48,838 nucleotides of DNA from assembly GCA_054600435.1 (NCBI GenBank), contig BAAIJX010000014.1, positions 434,001 through 482,838 on the forward strand, written 5' to 3'. The notes below the pieces were generated by a model, which was not told the origin of the DNA, did not search any database, and was given only the letters and a program-made list of their open reading frames with translations. Origin of the DNA: Neophaeotheca triangularis (lineage: Eukaryota). Positions 1,302 through 41,284 of this stretch are shown in pieces. Within the stretch, counting starts at the first letter, position 1; every line of letters starts with the position of its first letter. Both the position numbers and the translations under genes were made by a program.

Positions 1302-2347
1302 GGGAGGTGGGGTGAGGTGAGTTGGCGGAAGTGAAGGTCGGCGGAAGGTATTGTCAAGGCGTAAGCGATGGCAGTGACGGCTTGCAAAGTTCCCTTTCTC
1401 ATTTGGTGAAAGGGCGTCTGAGCCGATGGCGGCCTCAGGGTGTCAAAATGTGTGTACCCCTGGACAGATACAACAGCATAGCTGTATCCAGCAAGCTGGA
1501 TTCTCACCAACACACGGCCCAGGCCAATGTATCATGACCAATCCAAAGCAGTGTGCCGCAGATACAAGCAAAAGCTGAAGATCCGGAGCTGATGGGTACA
1601 GGTGAATGATCAACGTGTGCTTTAGGGGATTTGGCCATCACGAGGGGGAAACGTCACATGATGCCAACCAAAGTCCTGAAGAGGCACTATTCGTCTTGTG
1701 GGAGACTGATGTACGTTGCGGTCATCTTTTGAACGACGATTGGCCGCTTTGCACCTAATCAGTTTGGTCAAAGGGGTCACAAGCGCTGGTCAGGTTTATC
1801 TCGAATCTTCGGAGTCGTACCCGTTGCATAGATGCCAGTCTTTGTATGTTGCAGGCCTAGCAAAAGGAAGGAGATGGGAATCTAATCCTGAGGTTGCTGC
1901 TCCTGGCTGGAGTTTCAGATCGGAATTCTAGTCAACTTTGGAGCAATAGCAATATACGGCTCCAAGCAGTCTAGCAAATCAATATGGTCCCCCCGAGATG
2001 TTGTTTTGATTGTACCCAATTGCCTCATGGACTTTTACACTCGTCCGTCATGAGGGTTCCACGAGTGCTGGAATTGTCCAGACATGGGAATGAGCAAGGG
2101 CCTTTCGTAGAATGGGACAGTCGAATTTCAACCAAGTGATCGTAGTCTTGAATCTTTGGGGAGGGCATCGAGTGGATTCCCGAGGTGGGGGACTCTCAAT
2201 GTGAGTTAAGAGCATACAAGAGCATAGAAACCGTCTCCAAAAGAAAGAAGAAAGAAGAAAAAGGAAGCAGGGGCGAATGTTGGACTGGTCACCGAACTCG
2301 GTTGGACATGCCTGAGGGAAGCTTTGCACAGTTCCGTAGGTCGGGCG

Positions 2348-2363
2348 AAAAAACAGCAAAAAA
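2348..2363 (-). terminator. Pol III oligo-T terminator(s) of the tRNA-Leu gene
   Basis: T6 runs on the minus strand at 2363-2358 and 2353-2348, starting about 20 nt downstream of the discriminator base. Confidence 0.7.
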
Positions 2364-2425
2364 GAAAGAATCGCTCATGATGTTGATGAGAGTGGGATTC
2401 GAACCCACGCCCTTTCGGACCAGCG

Positions 2426-2444
2426 AACTTCAGATGTGTGAACA
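2426..2444 (-). other. Canonical 19-nt tRNA intron at position 37/38
   Basis: TGTTCACACATCTGAAGTT lies one base 3' of the anticodon AAG; it has no spliceosomal signals, and removal gives a 7-nt anticodon loop. Confidence 0.85.
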
Positions 2445-2455
2445 CCTTAAGCTGG

Positions 2456-2514
2456 CTATTGAGGTTGTTAGATTTGTTTGGGAGAGCAGAGTCGTGTTGT
2501 TGGTGTGTACTAAC
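2456..2514 (-). other. 59-nt GT-AG spliceosomal-type intron within tRNA-Leu, between positions 26 and 27
   Basis: Minus strand GTTAGT...TCTAAC(2472-2467)AACCTCAATAG; removal restores the AAGGCG|CCAGC junction between the D arm and the anticodon stem. Confidence 0.85.
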
Positions 2515-2532
2515 CGCCTTAGACCGCTCGGC

Positions 2533-2585
2533 CTGTGGGATGTTAGCGGTTTGAACCGATGTGGATGGGAAATCGAGTCACGTGC
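2533..2585 (-). other. 53-nt GC-AG spliceosomal-type intron within tRNA-Leu, between positions 9 and 10
   Basis: Minus strand GCACGT...GCTAAC(2547-2542)ATCCCACAG; removal restores TG|GCCGAGCGG (A box/D stem). Confidence 0.8.
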
Positions 2586-2625
2586 CATCTCACCCATGTT
2601 GGATGTCGTTAGAGTGGTATCTTTG

Positions 2626-2633
2626 CATATATT
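2626..2633 (-). promoter_or_regulatory. TATA-like element about 32-39 nt upstream of tRNA-Leu
   Basis: Minus strand AATATATG, near the position where TFIIIB/TBP binds upstream of fungal tRNA genes. Confidence 0.35.
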
Positions 2634-4091
2634 CCTTTGTGATAGAGGCTGTGCGGCTGGCTCGGTCATCCAAGGGCGGCTGAAAAATCCGGCGTTGAAT
2701 TTTCTCAGCTTGCCCCGCAGACTGTGGGCTCGAGAAAGTGATCCGTGCGACTAACTCCGTTCTGCTACGAGTCTGACACCGTGGGTTGCTACTGGTTCAC
2801 TCCAGACTCCGAGAAATAATGTCCCCAGGCCCCTAGGTGCCCCTGGGGTTACGAGCGAGATAGTTCCGGGCAGTTGAGAAGAGTACCCGGGGTTGTTCAC
2901 GAGGGTTTGTGTTGAACGTATAAATGTCCATGTTGACTCTATTGCCATGCTCAAGAGCAAATTTACAGCATTGCGAAACCAAAATGAGTCCCCAAGGCTA
3001 AAGAGTCGAGCGGGAGAACGTTAGATTCTCGATAAAGGGGGTAGACAGTAGGCCTGAGTAAAGAAGTGCAGACCAGAGCAGACCAGAGCAGTCTCGTCGA
3101 AGATGACATCGAAGAGCGTAACCAGACTCAGAATGCCATGTTGTAGAGCCTGATGCTACAAGTACGCAAGTATTATTCAAACCGATTCTCAGAAGTTGGT
3201 CGATCTTCTCGAGTCTTCGATCGTCGGACAATGGGCCCCCGATTATCTATAGCTCGAGGACAGACCAAGTCGTTCTGACCTTAATCTCAAGAAAAGGGGT
3301 CGTTCGTCACGGAAGACGGTCGGCCAGGTAGCTGAACGCTGTGATACTCGAACTGTCTCGCGCGTAGGTGAGGACGAGTGACAACACCACGAGCTCTCGC
3401 ACCACCTCTACAATTATAGCAAAGCAAAGCATGAGCATAGACGAGCGCGCTGCGAGTGGCGGCATTGGATTTTGCCGGTATAGGGCTGAGATAGATTGAG
3501 ACAACCTTATTAGTCTTGTCACTTGTGTGGCGTTTTTGGGCGGCAAGCGGCGGTGCGGCGGTAGCTCCTAGCTTTGAAAGGACCATGACATGTGGAAACT
3601 CTGTCATGGTTGTGGTGAGAAACAAGCAAGTTGTAGAGTGGTGAATGATAGCGTTAGTAGCCAGCAGTCACACTGAAGTCATCCTGATTATATGTTGAAA
3701 AAGAGTTGAGAGAGCACGCCGCGCAAAAGCACCCCGTGCACAGCGCAATACCATCATCATCTCCGGTCGTCGTCGATAGCCGGATCCACCAGAGAGACTC
3801 GGGTAGCAGCGCCATTCGATACACTACTTAGTACTACTAGTAGTAGTTACTTACCACTCGCCTATCGTCGTTGCTTGGTTGAAGAATCCGGCCCATGTGT
3901 CAGGCCCAAAGAGTGGATACTTCTTGTTAAAGCTTTGCTAGCCCGCGACTGTTTGACCCGCCGCACTACGTAGGTACGTAGGTACGCAGACTGCGCAGCT
4001 GCACGGGGCACCACCATTCGAGTCGTGACAACTTTTTGCGGCCAACAAACGGCCAACTTTACGACTTTACTCCTCCGACCTCCCACGACCT

Positions 4092-4120
4092 CTCCTCCTC
4101 CTCCTCCTCCTCCTCCTCCT
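4092..4120 (+). repeat. (CCT)n microsatellite in the GUT2 5' region
   Basis: About 9-10 tandem CCT/TCC units just upstream of the ATG at 4140. Confidence 0.85.
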
Positions 4121-4139
4121 TCCCCCAAAACGACAAATC

Positions 4140-6393
4140 ATGGCGGCAGGACGAACGAGTTCCCGCATCCTCAAGGGCCTGGGGTACGCCTCTGTCGCCG
4201 GTGCCGCCGGCGGTGTTGGCCTCTACTTCATTTATAGGCCCCGTGAAATTCCCGGCTCCGAATCCGCCTTTGCGCCTCCTCCCACCTACGGCGAGGGCGG
4301 TGTCTTCAATCCGCCCAAGTTCCCCGCCGTCAAGAGCCGCGAAGACTCCATCGGCGAGCTCAAGGCGAGCGCCGGTGTCATTACCGATGCCTTCAAAAAG
4401 GCCAAGAGCAAGGTCGTGGGCGCCGTGACTGGCGACGAACCCCAGGAGGGCAAGGAAGACCCATACGATCTTCTCGTTATTGGAGGTGGTGCTACTGGTA
4501 CGGGTGTCGCTCTTGATGCTGCCACTCGTGGTCTCAAGGTCGCTCTCGTTGAGCGGGACGACTTCGCCTCCGGTACATCTAGCAAAAGCACGAAATTGGT
4601 TCACGGTGGTGTCCGATACCTCGAAAAGGCGGTCTTCGAACTCGACTACTCTCAATACGCTCTCGTCAAGGAGGCTCTCCGTGAGCGCCGCTACTTCCTC
4701 GACACCGCCCCTCATCTCTCGTCATGGCTCCCGATTATGATCCCGGTCAACAAGTGGTGGCAAGCCCCCTACTTCTGGGCCGGAACCAAGTTCTACGACT
4801 TGCTTGCTGGCTCCGAGAACATCGAAACGTCCTACTTCTTGACCAAGAGCAAGGCCCTCGACGCTTTCCCTATGCTCAAGAAGGACAACCTCTGGGGTGC
4901 CCTCGTCTACTACGACGGTGCGCACAACGACTCTCGCATGAACATTTCTCTCGCAATGACTGCTGCTCTCTACGGCTCGACTCTGGTTAACCACATGGAA
5001 GTCACTGGCCTCGAGAAGGATGCCAATGGCAAGCTCTGCGGTGCCAAGCTCAAGGACATGACCCACGAATATGACGGCAAAGCCCCCGAGGAATTCAGCG
5101 TCAAGGCCAAGGGTATCGTCAACGCTACTGGACCATTCTGTGACGCCATCCGCAAGATGGATGACCAATCCATCCCGGAGATGGTCGCTCCCAGCTCTGG
5201 TGTTCACGTTGTTCTCCCTGGTTACTACTCCCCCGCTGAAATGGGTTTGATCGACCCCAAGACTTCCGACGGCCGTGTCATGTTCTTCCTTCCCTGGCAA
5301 GGCAACACCATCGCCGGTACCACCGACGCCGCCTGCCCCATTAGCAAGAACCCCGTCGCCGGCGAGGAGGAAATCGACTGGATCATCTCCGAGGTGCAAA
5401 ACTACCTGCAGCCCGAAATCAACATCCGCCGTGGTGACGTGCTCGCAGCCTGGTCTGGCATCCGTCCTCTGGTTAGCGACCCGAAGAAAGGAAAGTCCGA
5501 AGGTCTCGTCCGCAACCACATCGTAACCACCTCTCCATCCGGCCTCCTCACCATTTCCGGCGGCAAATGGACCACCTACCGGCAAATGGCCGAAGAAACC
5601 GTCGATGAGGCCATCAAGGAGTTCAAGCTCCAAACCCGCCCAGTCACCAATCCCCCTCTCGTCAGCGGCGTCGAGGGCTTCCGCGAGAACGTCGACCTTG
5701 ACGGCTCCTGCAAGACCCACGAAGTCAGGCTGATCGGTGCCCACGGTTTCAGCAAGACTCTCTTCATCAATCTGATTCAGCACTACGGCGTCGAGACGGA
5801 CGTCGCCAAGCACCTGTGTGAATCCTACGGCGACCGCGCCTGGTCCGTCGCCGCCCTTTGCGCGCCCACCGATCAGCGCTTCCCCGTCCGAGGCACACGC
5901 ATCTCCCCGCTCTACCCCTACGTCGATGGCGAGATCCGCTACGCCGTGCGCCACGAGTACGCGCAGAGCGCTGTCGACGTCCTGGCCCGTCGCACGCGTC
6001 TGTCTTTCCTCAACGCTCACGCCTCGCTCGAGGCTCTGCCGCAAGTCATCGACGTCATGGGCGAGGAGCTTAAGTGGAACCAGACCCGCAAGGAGCGCGA
6101 GTGGAGCAACGGCGTGCAATTCCTTGGTTCCATGGGATTGCCCAAAGGCAAGCTCGGGCTCAAGAGGGCTGACGTCGAGGCCGGCCGCACGGGCAAGTTC
6201 GATCAGTACAACCTTTACGCTCGTGATGGTAAGTTGCACACATTATTCCAAATTTTCGATTTCACAATAATGTGATCGCTAACCTCAGCTTTCCCTCTTG
6301 ACAGACAAGCCAGAAGAGCCCCTCGAAACAGACTCAAAGTTCCAGAGCGGGCACAACCCGACCATCGGCGTTGACTCTCCTGTCAACAAGTAG
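4140..6393 (+). CDS. GUT2: Mitochondrial FAD-dependent glycerol-3-phosphate dehydrogenase; exons 4140-6228, 6305-6393
   Basis: DLLVIGGGATGTGVALDAATRGL (FAD-binding), GTSSKSTKLVHGGVRYL, ISGGKWTTYRQMAE, DVLARRTRL. Intron 6229-6304 (GTAAGT..GCTAAC..ACAG) yields the C-terminus DKPEEPLETDSKFQSGHNPTIGVDSPVNK*. Confidence 0.96.
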
Positions 6394-7310
6394 ATTCCAA
6401 TCTCTCTTACCTTGAAATGACGAATTAGAGGGAACGGAACCAGGAAAAAACGACAGGATACCGAGCACCCGGATTGAACATTCCCCCCAAAAAAAAAAAA
6501 TCCTCGAGGGAAGAGAAAGGAATAGGAGAGGGAGAAAGAAAAAGAGAAAGAGACTTTCGTGCCCCTGCGCAGTCGAAAGGACCGGTGCAAGCGCGTTGGT
6601 TGTACATAGACATTCCCAAGGCCGTGCAGGTATAGTCGCTGGGACAATCGAAGAAGGGGGCAGGGAATTGGCGTTATTCTTCCTCCCGAAACGCCGGAGC
6701 GAAGAGCCTCTGGCACGGCGATTGGCTTGAGAGGTTCTTATCAGTGTATATTCCTTTTTGTGTACATTATTCCGTTTTCTACTTTGCTTTTGTTTTATGT
6801 ACGTTTGGTTTTGTCTGTCCCGTTGCGAAGCGTTCGTTACTATGTTCGTAGGGGGTGTCCAGTGTTCGTGTTGGACTTGCGCTGCTTGGTGAGCAACCCT
6901 CACTACTACCTAAAGCTAAGGCGATTTAGGGTTCGGGTTTGAGTTGTTGTTTGGAACGATGTGACCGTCGACTATTCGAAATGACATCTTGAGAAGGCTT
7001 TGGCGGGGCGGTCGATGTAGTGTCAGTTGCTGCGTGCGAAAGGAGTGCTGTTTAGAGTGCTCTTCATTGCCATCATGGTGCCAAAAGTCTTTAACGCAAA
7101 GCTTCATCAAAGCAGCAGTAGCTGGTACGTCGAAGCGCAATTGAACATTGTCTTTCACGAAGCGATGATGACCAATGGAGACATGCGCACTTCAAACGAT
7201 AGCTCCGGGCCAACATTGTCTCATTAAGAAGCTCTATCAGGGGTATCATGCAAAACAAGCAACGGAAAAACCACCAGCAACGGACCAGCCCAACAGCCCA
7301 TACAGCACAC

Positions 7311-8834
7311 TCAGTCGTACTCATCATAGCCGTCGTACGCCCCCGTGTCCCTTTGCGTGGAACACCACTCTTCCGTCGCAAGTTTCTTCTCCTTCGCCTT
7401 CGCCAAGTCTCTCGAGTCCTTGTGAAAGTCGCAAGCCCATTGACACACAGGCACCGCCGTCTCGCCGAAGTACTCTGCTATCAACTTGTGCCGACACGTC
7501 TTGACGTTCTCGCAATAGGCGATCAGTGCTTGCAAACTTTTCACCCTCCCGATCATGGCAGCATGAGAATTGGGCGCCTGCTTTGTCGTGGAGTGCTGGG
7601 CCTTAGCCTGTTCCCGTTGCATGGTGTAGGCTGCTCTATCTCGGTCCTCGCGGGAGTAATACAGCATGCAGATGCCAGCCTTGCCGTCACGGCCTGCACG
7701 ACCTGCTTCTTGGTAGAACCCTTCGAAGGACTTGGGAATTTGCCAGTGGACGACGAATCGGACGTTCTCTTTGTCGATGCCCATTCCAAAAGCGGTAGTC
7801 GCAACGATTACGTCGTAGCCTTCCTTGTTCGCGACCCAGCCGTGAAGGTGGTCGTCCTTCTGCTCGTTGGTGAGGCCAGCATGATACGGCTTCGCGCCGA
7901 TCCCGTCAGCCTGTAGGCGGGCCGCGAGTGCTTCCGTGTCTTTACGATAGAGAGTGTAGATGATTCCGGGAATGCTGTCAGCACGCTCGGAACGCTGCGT
8001 GAGTTCTTGCAGTCGTGCCGGATTACTCTTCCGCCTAGCATGAGCGGCTTTTAGCCATGCCAAAAAGTCGTCGTAGTGGTCTTCCTCATCGGACTTGAAG
8101 CGCACTTCGTAGTGAAGATTAGGTCGGCTCGTGGACATGGTGAAACACCGCGGATTCTCCAGACCGAGGATGCCCATGACATCTTCTCGTACTCGACTGG
8201 TTGCGGTGGCAGTACAGCACATGAGCGGAACGTCAGGGAACTCTCGCTTGAAGAACGACAGCTCTTTGAAACTCGGCCTGAAATCGTGGCCCCATTCACT
8301 AATACAGTGAGCTTCGTCGACGGCAATTCGAGCCAGCTCCTTCTGCTCATGAACCACTCTCAGACATTTGCGAAAGTAGTCAAGCTGGCAGTACTCCGGG
8401 GTGACATACAGCAGCCTGGTCCGCGGGTGGCCACTTTTGAGGTCGTCCAGGATAGCTTGCTTCACTGCGTAGAGAGTGGTGCTGTTGATCGTAGCCACGT
8501 TGAGGTTTGCCGCCCGCAAAGCGGCGATTTGGTTGTTCATGAGCGCCAGCAGCGGTGACACCACGATCGTGATACCATAATCGACGACGGCCGGGAGCTG
8601 AAAGCAAATGCTTTTGCCGAAACCGGTGGCGGCTTGAAGGAAAACATCGTTGCCGGACAGTGACGCTTCAATGACATCTCTTTGAGGTTGCCTGTTCGAA
8701 GTAAGTTAGTCCTTGGAAGAAGTGAATGGTGCTTTGCTGGCATGTTACCTGAATGATGGCTTCCCGAAAACTCTTCGAAGGGTAAAGTCGATGTCAACAG
8801 CTTCACCGAGCTTTTTTGTGACTTTGCCTGGCAT
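7311..8834 (-). CDS. Short RecQ-family ATP-dependent DNA helicase (~488 aa); exons 8834-8749, 8691-7311
   Basis: Intron 8748-8692 (GTAACA..ACTAAC..CAG). Motifs: VFGKPSFRQPQRDVI (motif 0), AATGFGKSICFQLP (Walker A), VDEAHCISEWGHDFRP, TATA, ATTAFGMGIDKENVRFVVH, QEAGRAGRDG, and Zn-binding CRH...CQWACDFH. Confidence 0.95.
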
Positions 8835-9226
8835 CGCAGAAATGGCGCAGCGAAAGCACTGCTGCTGTTCGTCTCCGTCGTGGTAGTGAACAACAAGAAG
8901 CGTTGCTAAAGTCTCAAAGAAAGCGGTTGTTGTGCTATGAAAAGGCTGCACGCAAGCTTAGAACAGTTATTGCAAGCAACGAGCACAATAGGCAGTTCCC
9001 AGTATATTCATTGAAGCGAATTCATTGAAGCGACGGGAACACGGGAAACATTCGTGCCCACCAGTGAAGGGAGGGCCAAAGCAGGTTCAGGTGATTAGGA
9101 AGTAGAAGGCACGGCTCGACACTCCGCCTAGAACACGAACGAAGCGCGTATCACGTGTTGCGACCCCAAGTATGTACACGATGATATGACATTATACTAT
9201 ACACAAGTCACAGTTAGGTAGATACA

Positions 9227-11589: not shown

Positions 11590-12534
11590 ATGGGCCGCTA
11601 CAACTTCGCACCTCAGCGGGTCCACCGACAAGTGACTCAACTCCTCGAGACAAAAGGGAGAACCGACCGACCTACCTGGTACCAGATCATAAGCAACACC
11701 CCCCCAAGCGAACGCCTCGTGCGCCCACCGTTGCAAAGACCTCAAAAACCGCAACACAAAGGCGGCCGGAAATCATCCAAGCTCTTCGAACCCTTGCAAC
11801 TGCGATACGAGGAGGACAAACTGCGATGGGAGTACTACAATGACCACCCGTGGGAGCTGGCGCGGCCGAGAGTGGTGCTAGAAGAGGATGGGAGGGATAG
11901 GGAGAAGTGGGATTGGAGTTTGAGTTTATGTAAGCCGGAGGAGATCAGCCTAGAGGAGAGGAGGAGACTGGGGGACAGCCCTGCGGACCTGTGGAAGAGA
12001 CGCATGCAGCAGGGGCAGAGTGCTAGGCCCTTGAATGGTGAAGCGTGAGTTCTGAAAGACGAGAGAGGGTTGCATGCTGGTTGCACAAGGGCTAACGAGA
12101 TGGACAGTGTCGTCCAACGCCAGCGCTGGCTTATTCACAACTCCGACATGTCAATCGCATCCGCTTACGACAAAGCGCGCAAGGAACTTTACCGGGCCCG
12201 GCATGCGCGGGAGGTTGAGCAGCGCGTCGCGCGCGAAGAGGCAATGTACTTTGGTGCTGAGTTTGGGCCTGGCCCAGTGGAGATTGGCATGCAACTCGAG
12301 AATGAGCAGTATGAGAAATGGCGCGTATGGGCCGAGCAGGAGGTTGCCGCGATCAAGCAACTACAAGGAAGTGCGTACACGGGCACGGAGAATGAGACGG
12401 CAGCACTGGAATTGGAGGATGGCAATGAAGCCACAGAGACCGAGACTATGGCCGGCATTGAAGAGGTCAGCGACCAGGTGCCTGCGAGCAAACGGGGGCA
12501 GACGGCACAGGGAGGTGCAGCGCTCCATCCTTGA
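11590..12534 (+). CDS. RSM25: Mitochondrial 37S ribosomal protein S25 (mS23); exons 11590-12044, 12108-12534
   Basis: Motifs P-TWY, LRYEEDKLRWEYYNDHPWELARPRVVLE, LNGEAVVQRQRWL, AYDKARKELY, VAREEAMYFGAEFG; intron 12045-12107 (GTGAGT..GCTAAC..CAG). Confidence 0.93.
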
Positions 12535-19189: not shown

Positions 19190-20179
19190 ATGTCGCTGAA
19201 CACCACGAAAGCAGACAGCCCACCAGCCGAGGAGCGGCGAGAAGGAGAAGACCTCTTCGGTTTCGAAATCAGCGAGGAGCTCGTGCGCTCGCCCAGTCAC
19301 GAAAGGGCAACAACGGTTTCCGTGGATTTCGAAGGGCTACTGCAAAGCCCCCTCAGGGTCTCCGTGGACCTAAGTGGAGGCTGCGGTGGGCGGATTTGGG
19401 AAGCTGGTAATGTCTTGGCGAGGTATCTGATACGTACCAAGCGGGATGAGCTGGGACGAAGTACCTCGATGTTCGTACCCTCTGATGGGTGAAGTATCTA
19501 GTAGTGTGGGGAGGTATCGCGACTATTACTGCTACTGAAGCTGACCATGATCCACGCAGACTCGAGCTCGGCGCTGGTGGCGGTCTGGTAGGGTGAGCAT
19601 GACACACTCCTGTCCCGGTACTGCGAGCTGTAAACCATGCCCTTTGATCGATCCTAACACCTCCCGTGACTTGCTTCCAGACTTGCCGTAGCAGCTGGCT
19701 GTCTCCCGAAAGACAGCATCGTCCACATCACAGACCAGCTGCCAATGCTCTCGCTCATGCGCGCGAACATTGCCTTGAACGGCTTGCAGGAGCGCGTCGA
19801 GGCTTCCATCTACGATTGGGGTGAGCCCCAGCCTACTGGACTGCCTGCGCACCCTCAGACGATTCTCGCGGCGGACTGCGTTTACTTTGAGCCCGCGTTC
19901 CCGCTGCTGCTGAAGACGTTGCATGATTTGATAGGACCCGGGACTACGTGCTACTTTTGCTTCAAGAGGAGGAGAAGGGCGGACTTGCACTTTATCAAGG
20001 CGCTGAAGAGGCAGTTTGAGGTGGTCGCCGCGGAGGACGACCCCGATCAGCCGGTGTATGCTCGTCAGAATATCTTTGTGTAGGTCCAGATAGGTGTGCT
20101 TTGAGCGCATGCGGTCGTATGCTGACAGCTTCCCAGCTACACCATCAGGCAGAAGACGACTCCGCCTTTGAAGATCTGA
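19190..20179 (+). CDS. EFM6: Protein-lysine N-methyltransferase, METTL21/Efm6 type (Methyltransf_16); exons 19190-19470, 19560-19592, 19681-20079, 20137-20179
   Basis: GCGGRIWEAGNVLARYL, ILELGAGGGLVGLAVA (SAM motif I, assembled across introns), ITDQ, YDWG, ILAADCVYFEPAFPLL, FKRRRRAD; three canonical introns with branch points. Confidence 0.9.
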
Positions 20180-24078: not shown

Positions 24079-24733
24079 ATGCTCCCCCGCCCACGAATAC
24101 GGCCGCAAGGCCTCCTCGACGCCCTGAAACGGCAAACCCTCGGCCCAAGCAAACGCACCCTCATCGCCGCCCCAAAACCCAACTCGGGCCCCCTCATGGA
24201 ACGCCGCGGCGACCGCGCCCTCCCCTCCATCGGCACCTCGAACCGCTGGCTCCGCACGCTCCCGCTCTTCGCCGTAATCATGGTCGCCTCGACGCTCGCA
24301 ATCTTCAATTACCAGAAATCCTCCTCGTCCGTCGTGAACAGCACGCTCTACGCCCTGCGCACGAACCCACGGGCCCGCGAGATTCTGGGCGATGAGATTT
24401 ACTTTGCAAGCCAGATTCCGTGGATCGGGGGCGAGATTAATCAGTTGCATGGGAAGATTGATATTCAGTTTTGGGTCAAGGGGACGAGGACACGCGGGTT
24501 GATGCGGTTTAGGAGTGAGAGGAGGCAGCGGATGGGATATGTGAGTAGTCATTTTCTGATGGTCGAGCGGATGTTGTTGGGTATGCGCTGTGATTTGCTA
24601 ACGCTGGGAACAGTTTGAGACGCTCGAGTGGAGTTTGGAGCCCGAGGGCAGCGAGAGGGTGTCGTTGTTGCAGGCTGAGGGCAAGGATCCTTTTAGGCAA
24701 GAAACGGCTGATAGGGTTGCCGTGGCCGCTTAG
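24079..24733 (+). CDS. COA1: Cytochrome c oxidase assembly factor Coa1 family; exons 24079-24540, 24614-24733
   Basis: Presequence-like N-terminus, TM helix, FNYQKSSSSVVNSTLYALRT...LGDEI...IPWIGGEINQLHGKIDIQFWVKG; intron 24541-24613 (GTGAGT..GCTAAC..CAG) gives the continuation FETLEWSL. Confidence 0.9.
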
Positions 24734-34471: not shown

Positions 34472-36388
34472 TCACAACCCTCCGCCGTGACTCTCCCTAA
34501 ATTCCCTAGCAATGTCACCATACCTTTCGAAACTGACACCAGGTTGCTTCGTAACCCACACAAGAAACCTCTCAATCATGCCAATGACATGAGCCATGCC
34601 ACTGGTATCGGGATGCAGCACGAGACTAAAGACCCTCTCCTCCCCTTCCTCCTCGCTCTCCCGTGCCAGCCAGTCAAACCGGTCGTGCCACATGCGCTCC
34701 ACCACCCTGACATCAACGTAACCGGCGCTGTTCACTGTGTGTGGGTAGAATTGCAATGGCGTGGCGTCTTCTGAGTACCAGTTACAGGGGATCTCGACGA
34801 GATTGCTCTTGGGCACCGAGGGCGAGGAGGGATTTGGCGAAGGGTGCATCCAGCTTTCGGCCGGTCTGTCTGGTGAGAAATCTATCGGCTCGATGGGAGC
34901 GGGGTTGAGGGCGAGGAAGTAGGGTTTGCTGTCGCCGTGTGAGAGGGACGAGTCCCAGAGGAAGCCTTTCTCTTGTAGCAGTGCAATGGTACGTTCGCCC
35001 AGTTGGTAGAGCGGAGCGCGGTAGCCCAAGGGTTTACGGCCTGTCAGTCCCTCGACGAGCTGGGTGCTGCGTTCCAAGACGGCGCGCTCTTGTTCAGCCG
35101 TCATTTGCGACGCGCCTTCGTGTGCGTACCCGTGGAGTGCAATTTCGCAGCCTGTGGCGGCGATGGTTCGAGCGGCTTCTGGGAAGGTTTCGAGGCTGTG
35201 GCCGGGAATGCACCAAGTCAGCTTGTCTGCGATGTTGTGTTTGCGGAAGAGCTTCAGGAGACGAGGCACGCCAACGTTCCCAGCGAAGAAGCCGGCGCTG
35301 TAGTCTGAGGTGTTATTGTCTGGATGAGCACCTGTTCCTAGCCAACCTGAGACGGCATCGAAGTCGATAGACCAGGCTACTTTGATCTTGGGTTTGGCTC
35401 GACCTGCAGAAAGCGGCTGCGGTATGCCGGGCGAGGCTTTTGGGTCAGGCGTCTTGCCTCCTGGCGCTTTCCCCAACACCTCCTCTTCTCTCCAGACGAC
35501 ACGACCTTCCATCCCGCCATCCACGCTCAGACACTGTCCACTCATATGGCCAGAAGCTCGGTGGCTCGCAAGGAACGCCACGGCCTTTGCAACATCAACA
35601 GGCTCGGCAATCCTCTTCAAAGCCACCGTAGCTTTCGACTCGTAGTAAGACTCACGAGCATCATCAAGGCGATCGCCAATGAGCTCTGTGTTGACCCAGC
35701 CCGGAGCGACGGCATTTATCCTACCTTTTGCGTTGAGCTTGACGATCTCATTCTTGACAGTAGGCACGAGACCGTACTGCAGACCAGCCTTGCCGCTTGC
35801 ATACCTGAGACAGTCAGCGAAGTAGTGAGTAATCCCGCAACCGTGATTCCTCACTCAACATGTCCAGCTTGGCCAAACTTGCCACACTCGCTCCCAGTAA
35901 CCACAATGGCCAGATTATGGAGCTGCTGGCCTGACTGCTCTTGGTGCCCCTTTGCCGCGAGCAAAAAGTGCTTGATGGTGAGGAAAGTGCCGCGGTTGTT
36001 GCCTCGATATACGTTCTCCCAGGTGTCGAGGTCCAGCTCCCAGATGTTAGGATGACTGGCCTCGTTCGTGATACCGGCGTTGGCGCAAAGTATGTTGATA
36101 GGGCCGAAGCGTGCTTCTGCTGCTGCAACGGAGGCGGAAATGGATGCTTCGTCTGAAATGTCGCCTTCCACTTGGAAGACATTGGCTTGTTCAACATCTA
36201 TCTTGGCGGATCTCAGGTCATGTGCGGTGACTTTGCACCCAGCAGCTAGCATCCGTCAGCTCGTGGTTAAGACAACACCTGGGCTCAAATGTAGGCATAC
36301 CGAGCAATTCTGTAACAATGGCGGAGCCGATGCCGCCTTGCGCTCCTGTCACGAAGGCATGGCACCCTTCGATGTCGAGGAAAGACAT
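34472..36388 (-). CDS. Fusion protein: N-terminal classical short-chain dehydrogenase/reductase plus C-terminal CE4 polysaccharide-deacetylase-like domain (PuuE/HpPgdA type), ~603 aa; exons 36388-36301, 36245-35855, 35804-34472
   Basis: SDR part: VTGAQGGIG, CANAG, TGS, YASGK, RINAVAPGWVNT, GQCLSVDGG. CE4 part: WSIDFDAVSGWLG, HGYAHE, GYRAP, WDSSL, LHP. Introns 36300-36246 and 35854-35805 have canonical signals. Confidence 0.9.

Positions 36389-41238: not shown

Positions 41239-41284
<46 letters not shown>

Follow-up and report, generated by a model that had tools for sequence, protein, structure and literature searches.

A tRNA-Leu(AAG) gene split by two probable spliceosomal-type introns in addition to its canonical tRNA intron

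Can a nuclear transfer RNA (tRNA) gene carry introns of the kind that the spliceosome removes, and still give rise to a working tRNA? The question is raised by a locus on the minus strand of a 48,838-nucleotide (nt) stretch of Neophaeotheca triangularis DNA (assembly GCA_054600435.1, contig BAAIJX010000014.1, forward-strand positions 434,001 to 482,838), which is called the window here and within which all positions are counted. Four short exons at this locus make up a tRNA-Leu(AAG), and they are separated by three inserts. One insert is an ordinary tRNA intron at position 37/38. The other two are, to judge by their sequence, very probably introns of the spliceosomal type. We tentatively read the locus as a nuclear tRNA-Leu(AAG) gene, from a fungus like the filamentous ascomycetes, that keeps its ordinary intron, has acquired two spliceosomal-type introns and may work by way of the spliceosome, a reading that is possible and falls just short of probable.

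The four exons (Table 1) were joined by coordinate in a script, and the product was then given to the program ARAGORN, which accepted it as an 80-nt tRNA-Leu(AAG) in which no stem is left unpaired, the variable arm is long and the discriminator base is A. The conserved T loop and U33 of a proper cloverleaf are likewise present in the joined exons, and the acceptor strand of exon 1 pairs at 7/7 positions, one of them as G-U, with positions 2391-2385. This agrees with the original prediction, a short note made from the letters of the window, which had claimed that four segments rebuild an intact 80-nt tRNA with the inserts lying exactly at the junctions where they are needed, and had proposed a tRNA search on the spliced sequence as a check. 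The coordinates, sizes and motifs that it gave for the exons and introns proved to be exact, and ARAGORN, used for such a search, accepted the rebuilt tRNA. The parse of exon 3 is set by 65 intron-less relatives with an identical loop, taken from metagenome loci. The predicted fold (z-score -2.08) also matches the ten leading bases to the 3′ end. When the locus is left unspliced, ARAGORN calls no tRNA in it, with or without the intron option, and there is no match to the Rfam tRNA model at the gathering score. With the Rfam expectation value (E) relaxed up to 10, the T arm alone is matched, and this via the tRNA-like end of the transfer-messenger RNA (tmRNA) model. A tRNA pseudogene is recognised by stems that no longer pair, by missing invariant bases or by the loss of its promoter and terminator, and no such sign is present once the inserts are taken out.

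Table 1. Positions of the parts of the split tRNA-Leu(AAG) gene, of its putative transcription signals and of the messenger RNA (mRNA) introns used for comparison.
Feature	Positions	Strand	Description
TATA-like element AATATATG	2633-2626	minus	32-39 nt upstream of tRNA position 1; putative promoter role
5′ leader ACATCCAACATG	2606-2595	minus	Like the CATCAA(A/C/T)(T/C) leader of fungal-type tRNA-Leu(AAG) genes; compared by eye with 10 metagenome loci
Exon 1, 9 nt	2594-2586	minus	Acceptor-stem 5′ strand, U8 and G9; from coordinate reading and ARAGORN
Intron 1, 53 nt, at 9/10	2585-2533	minus	GCACGT..GCTAAC..CAG
Intron 1 donor	2585-2580	minus	GCACGT
B-box-like word GGTTCAAACC	2557-2548	minus	Inside intron 1, 30 nt after U8
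Intron 1 branch site	2547-2542	minus	GCTAAC
Intron 1 acceptor	2535-2533	minus	CAG
Exon 2, 18 nt	2532-2515	minus	Complete D arm and G26
Intron 2, 59 nt, at 26/27	2514-2456	minus	GTTAGT..TCTAAC..TAG
Intron 2 donor	2514-2509	minus	GTTAGT
Intron 2 branch site	2472-2467	minus	TCTAAC
Intron 2 acceptor	2458-2456	minus	TAG
Exon 3, 11 nt	2455-2445	minus	Anticodon-stem 5′ strand and loop to G37; anticodon AAG
Canonical tRNA intron, 19 nt, at 37/38	2444-2426	minus	Pairs with the anticodon loop in the predicted fold
Exon 4, 42 nt	2425-2384	minus	Position 38, anticodon-stem 3′ strand, long variable arm, T arm, acceptor 3′ strand, discriminator A
B box GGTTCGAATCC	2405-2395	minus	Exact match, inside the T arm in exon 4
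Two T6 runs	2363-2358, 2353-2348	minus	Like RNA polymerase III terminators; the first begins 21 nt past the tRNA 3′ end
mRNA intron in MRP-S25	12045-12107		Pfam continuity and frame
mRNA intron 1 in the Methyltransf_16 gene	19489-19559	plus	71 nt; Pfam continuity and frame
mRNA intron 2 in the Methyltransf_16 gene	19593-19680	plus	88 nt; Pfam continuity and frame
mRNA intron in Coa1	24541-24613		Upstream side only: the Pfam match ends one codon before the donor
mRNA intron in adh_short	35854-35805	minus	Pfam continuity and frame

What kind of insert lies at 9/10 and at 26/27? Both carry the marks of U2-type introns, i.e. a GT or GC donor with G at +5, a CTRAY branch site, a YAG acceptor and a typical length. 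The candidate branch A is 2543 in intron 1 and 2468 in intron 2, with 10 and 12 nt of intron, respectively, following it. We modelled the chance of such signals from the window's own frequencies, as the product of a G[TC]NNGT start (0.0081), a YAG end (0.0255) and a CTAAC lying 8-30 nt from the end (0.0092), which gives 1.9e-6 per insert for all three at a fixed place. The window contains 195,128 stretches of these two lengths (53 or 59 nt) when the start is fixed; two of them pass on all signals, and we take these to be introns 1 and 2 because the scan with free placement lists them as its sole 53- and 59-nt matches. By our own reading of the sequence, an identical mature RNA would result from four boundary registers for intron 1 and from two for intron 2; with these registers allowed, the joint chance for both inserts is about 3e-11. 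The improbable part is the exact placement at the tRNA junctions, not the motifs as such: counted without regard to placement, they are not enriched in the window (9 seen versus 10.9 +/- 3.9 in shuffles).

The introns of neighbouring mRNA genes offer a local standard. Using Pfam matches to 150 stop-to-stop open reading frames (ORFs) in the window, together with frame-consistent joins, we fixed four of them; a fifth, the candidate in Coa1, has support on its upstream side only, and the short exon after it gave no Pfam match. These five introns measure 50, 63, 71, 73 and 88 nt, against 53 and 59 nt in the tRNA gene. Their branch sites read GCTAAC, GCTGAC or CCTAAC, against GCTAAC and TCTAAC, with 10-24 nt from the branch A to the next exon locally, against 11 and 13 nt. 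Their acceptors are CAG, against CAG and TAG, and their donors GTGAGT, GTGAGG, GTGAAG, GTGAGC and GTGAGT, against GCACGT and GTTAGT. Both tRNA introns have little G (a content of 0.15 and 0.08) and much C and A, in contrast to the local introns, where G makes up 0.20-0.38. A candidate intron of the dehydrogenase gene at 6229-6304 was left uncounted because its short downstream exon has no Pfam match, and a crude intron finder based on joining ORFs was dropped with its 39 mostly spurious candidates. Within the Methyltransf_16-type gene, we also see an internal microexon of 33 nt (19560-19592, plus strand), which reads LELGAGGGLV and lies between the 71- and 88-nt introns. Small exons are thus handled in this genome, at least in one local mRNA.

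We then turn to what relatives of the gene look like. The comparison set comprised 83 tRNA-Leu(AAG) loci from metagenome contigs with the same D arm and anticodon arm, 81 of which could be judged. None of the 83 is an orthologue of the locus, in that the tRNA exons alone match when the loci are compared with window positions 1500-3600. The canonical introns of the relatives sit at the same place and are 11-14 nt long, compared to 19 nt here. Ten fungal-type genes from the metagenomes, which share the acceptor stem and have a canonical intron of 11-12 nt, were compared in full, and the exons proved identical to them at 76/80 positions. The four differences make up the T-stem pairs 49:65 and 50:64, each changed on both sides, so that pairing is compensated. 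A scan of the metagenome data for a D arm, 40-70 nt and an anticodon arm in succession gave 0 matches, and scans of the genome-contig and viral-contig collections for AG, exon 2 and GT in succession gave 0 matches each. Two sequencing runs (small shares of 0.10 and 0.05), placed on positions 1400-9000, covered mainly the glycerol-3-phosphate dehydrogenase gene; the trace depth at the tRNA bins in one run would fit a read from some conserved half of a tRNA and is uninformative on splicing. Separately, one metagenome data set includes eleven contigs, the longest of 281 kilobases (kb), that each carry a fungal-type tRNA-Leu(AAG) with an 11-nt canonical intron and, where the flank suffices, a conserved CATCAA-type leader. 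This set displays a normal multi-copy family of tRNA-Leu(AAG) genes.

The two extra introns were also compared with possible sources. Alignment revealed no likeness between the two (p 0.37), or between either of them and the tRNA with its flanks (p 0.22 and 0.68), and no significant alignment pointed to an origin by duplication of the tRNA, the leader, the trailer or each other (p 0.08-0.68). Neither has a paralogue in the 48.8-kb window, which is a weak test. As the introns are unrelated to each other and without relatives in the window, their sequences suggest two separate gains in a gene whose exons carry no defect.

How might such a gene be transcribed? RNA polymerase III (Pol III) recognises an A box at tRNA positions 8-19 and a B box at positions 52-62, and the distance of the A box sets the start. 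The B box and the T6 runs listed in Table 1 are intact, as the original prediction had held. The T6 runs follow soon after the 3′ end and none lies inside the gene; indeed, the minus strand has no run of at least four T from 2660 to 2364. A second exact B-box match, at 33078-33068, falls within the coding region of methionine synthase. The A box itself is split at 9/10 by intron 1, and the DNA beside exon 2 keeps all of it except position 8. Upstream, AATATATG is one of 18 TATA-like words on both strands of the window, where 0.005 are expected per 25-nt span, and GGTTCAAACC is a B-box-like word of which 0.003 are expected in a span such as that in which it was found; both were spotted post hoc. 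Together they could offset the displacement of the A box. By analogy, the pair recalls the promoter layout of fission-yeast U6.

On the reading that we favour, transcription would begin shortly before exon 1 and end at the T6 runs. It would most likely be the work of Pol III, with assistance from the TATA-like element, since the A box has been shifted some 62 base pairs (bp) downstream by intron 1. The spliceosome would then remove introns 1 and 2 by intron definition, using the GC and GU donors, the CUAAC branch sites and the YAG acceptors. Only after this step would the D arm and the L-shape form, and the tRNA splicing endonuclease (TSEN) would cut the canonical intron afterwards, with RNase P and RNase Z trimming the ends last. 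Gene anatomy, the placement of the signals, the missing endonuclease motifs described below and the intact exons make this scheme of transcription, spliceosomal removal, step order and function plausible, if not quite likely. A little more tentative is the further idea that this would be the first tRNA to depend on two splicing machines in sequence, with the spliceosome acting on the acceptor and D-arm region of a Pol III transcript before the endonuclease does, and that GGTTCAAACC and the TATA-like element are compensating promoter parts, as in fission-yeast U6. In favour of function, the two introns are independent and unrelated, stand in a single 80-bp gene, and there is no defect in the exons, branch sites, acceptors, B box, canonical intron or terminators.

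A number of observations weigh against a working gene of this kind. The relatives offer no sign of it: in 81/81 judged loci the D arm adjoins the anticodon stem, with neither insert in any, and in 78/81 a well-paired acceptor strand stands directly before the D stem, while the other 3 pair at 4-5/7 positions with no intron junction visible. Given an A box that stands some 62 bp away from position 1, Pol III would, by the usual start rule, begin inside intron 1. The donors GCACGT and GTTAGT are weak in being unlike the local start, which is GTGA in 5/5 mRNA introns and GTGAG in 4/5. The claim of the original prediction that the inserts match the mRNA introns of the window is thus borne out for length, branch site and acceptor, and fails for the donor. 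There is also a cryptic donor, G|GTGAGA, in exon 1 (tRNA positions 1/2-7), which is nearer to the local consensus than the GC donor is, and a GTGACT lies 4 nt inside intron 1; use of either would destroy the tRNA.

The inserts could instead be tRNA introns of a non-canonical kind, taken out by the tRNA splicing endonuclease, in which case their resemblance to splice signals would be incidental. There are precedents of a kind, since passages of PMC4090602 describe multiple introns at D-arm positions, cut at motifs like the bulge-helix-bulge (BHB), in Cyanidioschyzon merolae, nucleomorphs and archaea. A BHB was taken here as two 3-nt bulges around a 4-bp central helix with the cut after the second bulge base, and none was found at intron 1 or intron 2, where the central helix has 2/4 pairs each in the canonical register. 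With relaxed bulge sizes, the best central helix reaches 3/4 for intron 1 and 2/4 for intron 2. Removal at BHB-like structures is what the original prediction had named as telling against it, and neither extra insert has the motif. The canonical 37/38 intron is likewise without a strict BHB (2/4), and eukaryotic pre-tRNAs are cut by a ruler mechanism, usually without one. What matters for the eukaryotic enzyme, in the account that portions of PMC10485636 give, is the tertiary shape of the tRNA, with TSEN2 contacting the D arm and a ruler from the mature domain setting the cut sites; this recognition by shape and ruler is described there as likely conserved in fungi. In the present gene the D arm is taken apart by the two inserts, which would prevent the shape that a fungal-type TSEN is thought to need, and this argues against TSEN removing them. 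It also follows that the canonical intron could be cut only after introns 1 and 2 are gone. As an incidental donor, branch site and acceptor at both inserts would be a matter of about 3e-11, we consider removal by the endonuclease very improbable.

A different objection concerns not the identity of the introns but the state of the gene. It may be a dead copy, one of several tRNA-Leu(AAG) genes, hit twice by recent intron-type insertions and no longer expressed as a working tRNA. Introner-like elements could have inserted at the DNA level, or introns could have been reverse-spliced into RNA and copied back, and the exons would be perfect only because the events are recent. Short introner-type elements do spread in fungal and algal genomes, according to parts of PMC11146597. 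Where a eukaryote has many synonymous tRNA genes, extracts of PMC4090602 presume one with an insertion in its D or T arm to be a pseudogene. The lack of both inserts in the 81 judged relatives, the displaced A box and the stronger cryptic donor of exon 1 all fit a dead copy. So do the donors, each of which is one change away from the common form, GTRNGT, as if the signals had begun to decay. Yet it would be surprising for two unrelated inserts to land in one 80-bp target if tRNA genes were not hot spots and the first insert had not been tolerated, and nothing is damaged at the 80 exon positions, the branch sites, the acceptors, the B box, the canonical intron or the terminators. Introns old enough to have lost any likeness to their source would, moreover, imply that a neutral gene had drifted as well, and the window offers no paralogue of either intron, for what this weak test is worth. 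The argument for an intact gene in the original prediction therefore stands in part, as the stems, B box, canonical intron and T6 runs are indeed intact, whereas a dead copy stays a serious rival, quite possible even though we lean towards doubting it. There is also the option that the gene is hosted by RNA polymerase II (Pol II), with a capped non-coding precursor made from the TATA-like element, spliceosomal removal of the introns, release of the tRNA by RNase P and RNase Z, and the T6 runs left as a relic. The position of the TATA-like word, 32-39 nt upstream, would suit this, as would an A box displaced against the standard placement of the Pol III start, and spliceosomal introns are normally tied to Pol II in the relevant sections of PMC12530127 and PMC8527467. 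A Pol II host fits less well with the B box, most of the A box, the fungal-type leader and two T6 runs all having been kept, with no run of at least four T inside the unit, and with the lack of a neighbouring ORF on the same strand that has a Pfam match; we regard it as unlikely.

How does a tRNA gene with spliceosomal introns, as we propose, compare with known systems? A full-text literature search, with most subscription journals outside its coverage, found no published spliceosomal intron in a tRNA, in keeping with the original prediction. U6, one of the small nuclear RNAs (snRNAs), is a Pol III transcript, and a B-box match inside the Schizosaccharomyces U6 intron was reportedly the subject of a paper by Frendewey et al. 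in 1990, going by its title. Intron 1 has a comparable B-box-like word in GGTTCAAACC. More broadly, the introns described here are like those of U6 in Schizosaccharomyces and other yeasts, and of U2, U1 and U5 in Rhodotorula hasegawae, in being short introns of the GT-AG type in the gene of a small, structured non-coding RNA. The titles of papers cited in PMC5855946 refer to mRNA-type introns in the U6, U2, U1 and U5 genes of yeasts. Unlike in the snRNA cases, the host here is a tRNA and not a component of the spliceosome, two such introns share one gene with a protein-spliced intron, and splicing is predicted. The snRNA introns are usually explained by reverse splicing into RNA at the catalytic centre of the spliceosome, an origin that is not directly applicable to a tRNA, as it is not part of that machine.

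Spliceosomal introns in the ribosomal DNA (rDNA) of lichen-forming ascomycetes were reportedly described by Bhattacharya et al. in 2000. For one such intron of 57 bp, parts of the work on Cladonia grayi (PMC8527467) report removal by the spliceosome from an RNA polymerase I (Pol I) ribosomal RNA (rRNA), even in yeast. What the two cases share is that ascomycete spliceosomal introns of some 57 bp occur ectopically, outside the genes transcribed by Pol II; the difference is that the host there is a Pol I rRNA and removal is experimental, whereas the host here is a tRNA and removal is predicted. Up to three introns per tRNA gene, D-arm positions included and together with a canonical 37/38 intron, are recorded in passages of PMC4090602, and the present gene resembles these in combining introns at D-arm positions with the canonical one. 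As those passages have it, such introns are bounded by BHB motifs, cut by the endonuclease and in many cases 3-24 nt long; the extra inserts here are unlike them in having no BHB and in carrying GT or GC, CTAAC and AG signals instead. Introner-like elements and introners, associated reportedly with van der Burgt et al. (2012) and Gozashti et al. (2022), are a possible source of new short spliceosomal introns such as these. In the portions of PMC11146597 that deal with them, introners are a non-coding class of less than 200 nt and a route for new spliceosomal introns in fungal and algal genomes. They form multi-copy families of near-identical members, unlike introns 1 and 2, which are dissimilar to each other and have no copy in the window. 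In short, a spliceosomal intron in a non-coding gene outside Pol II is known, and the novelty would lie in having a tRNA as host and a protein-spliced intron in the same gene.

Some other features of the window may be recorded here. Its ORFs include the Pfam families Ima1_N, AIM5, Coa1 and SKG6, which together with the style of its introns mark the DNA as fungal. The tRNA locus has a GH30-like gene on one side and the glycerol-3-phosphate dehydrogenase gene on the other. In the stop-to-stop ORF at 34475-35854 (minus strand), a polysaccharide deacetylase domain comes after the C-terminal portion of a short-chain dehydrogenase domain, and the ORF is either a fusion or two genes read through. A simple repeat at 4082-4130 (plus strand) lies just upstream of the start codon of the glycerol-3-phosphate dehydrogenase gene and reads as ten leucines in the open frame; it was also marked as repetitive when reads were placed on the window. 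Around 41243-41283, in the Ima1-like gene, there is a trinucleotide repeat with short BLAST matches that step by 3 nt.

Textbooks, and recent reviews in the sections of PMC12530127 and PMC10485636 that address the matter, keep the nuclear intron types apart, assigning the spliceosomal kind to Pol II transcripts and the protein-spliced kind to tRNAs. If the reading that we favour is true, a tRNA that needs the spliceosome would cross this line, a tRNA would join snRNAs and rRNA on the short list of non-coding hosts of spliceosomal introns, and a Pol III tRNA precursor could serve as a substrate of the spliceosome. Since standard tRNA finders miss the gene entirely, similar genes may hide elsewhere and tRNA sets may be under-counted. 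Even if this copy is dead, two spliceosomal-type introns in a tRNA gene would bear on how new introns are gained.

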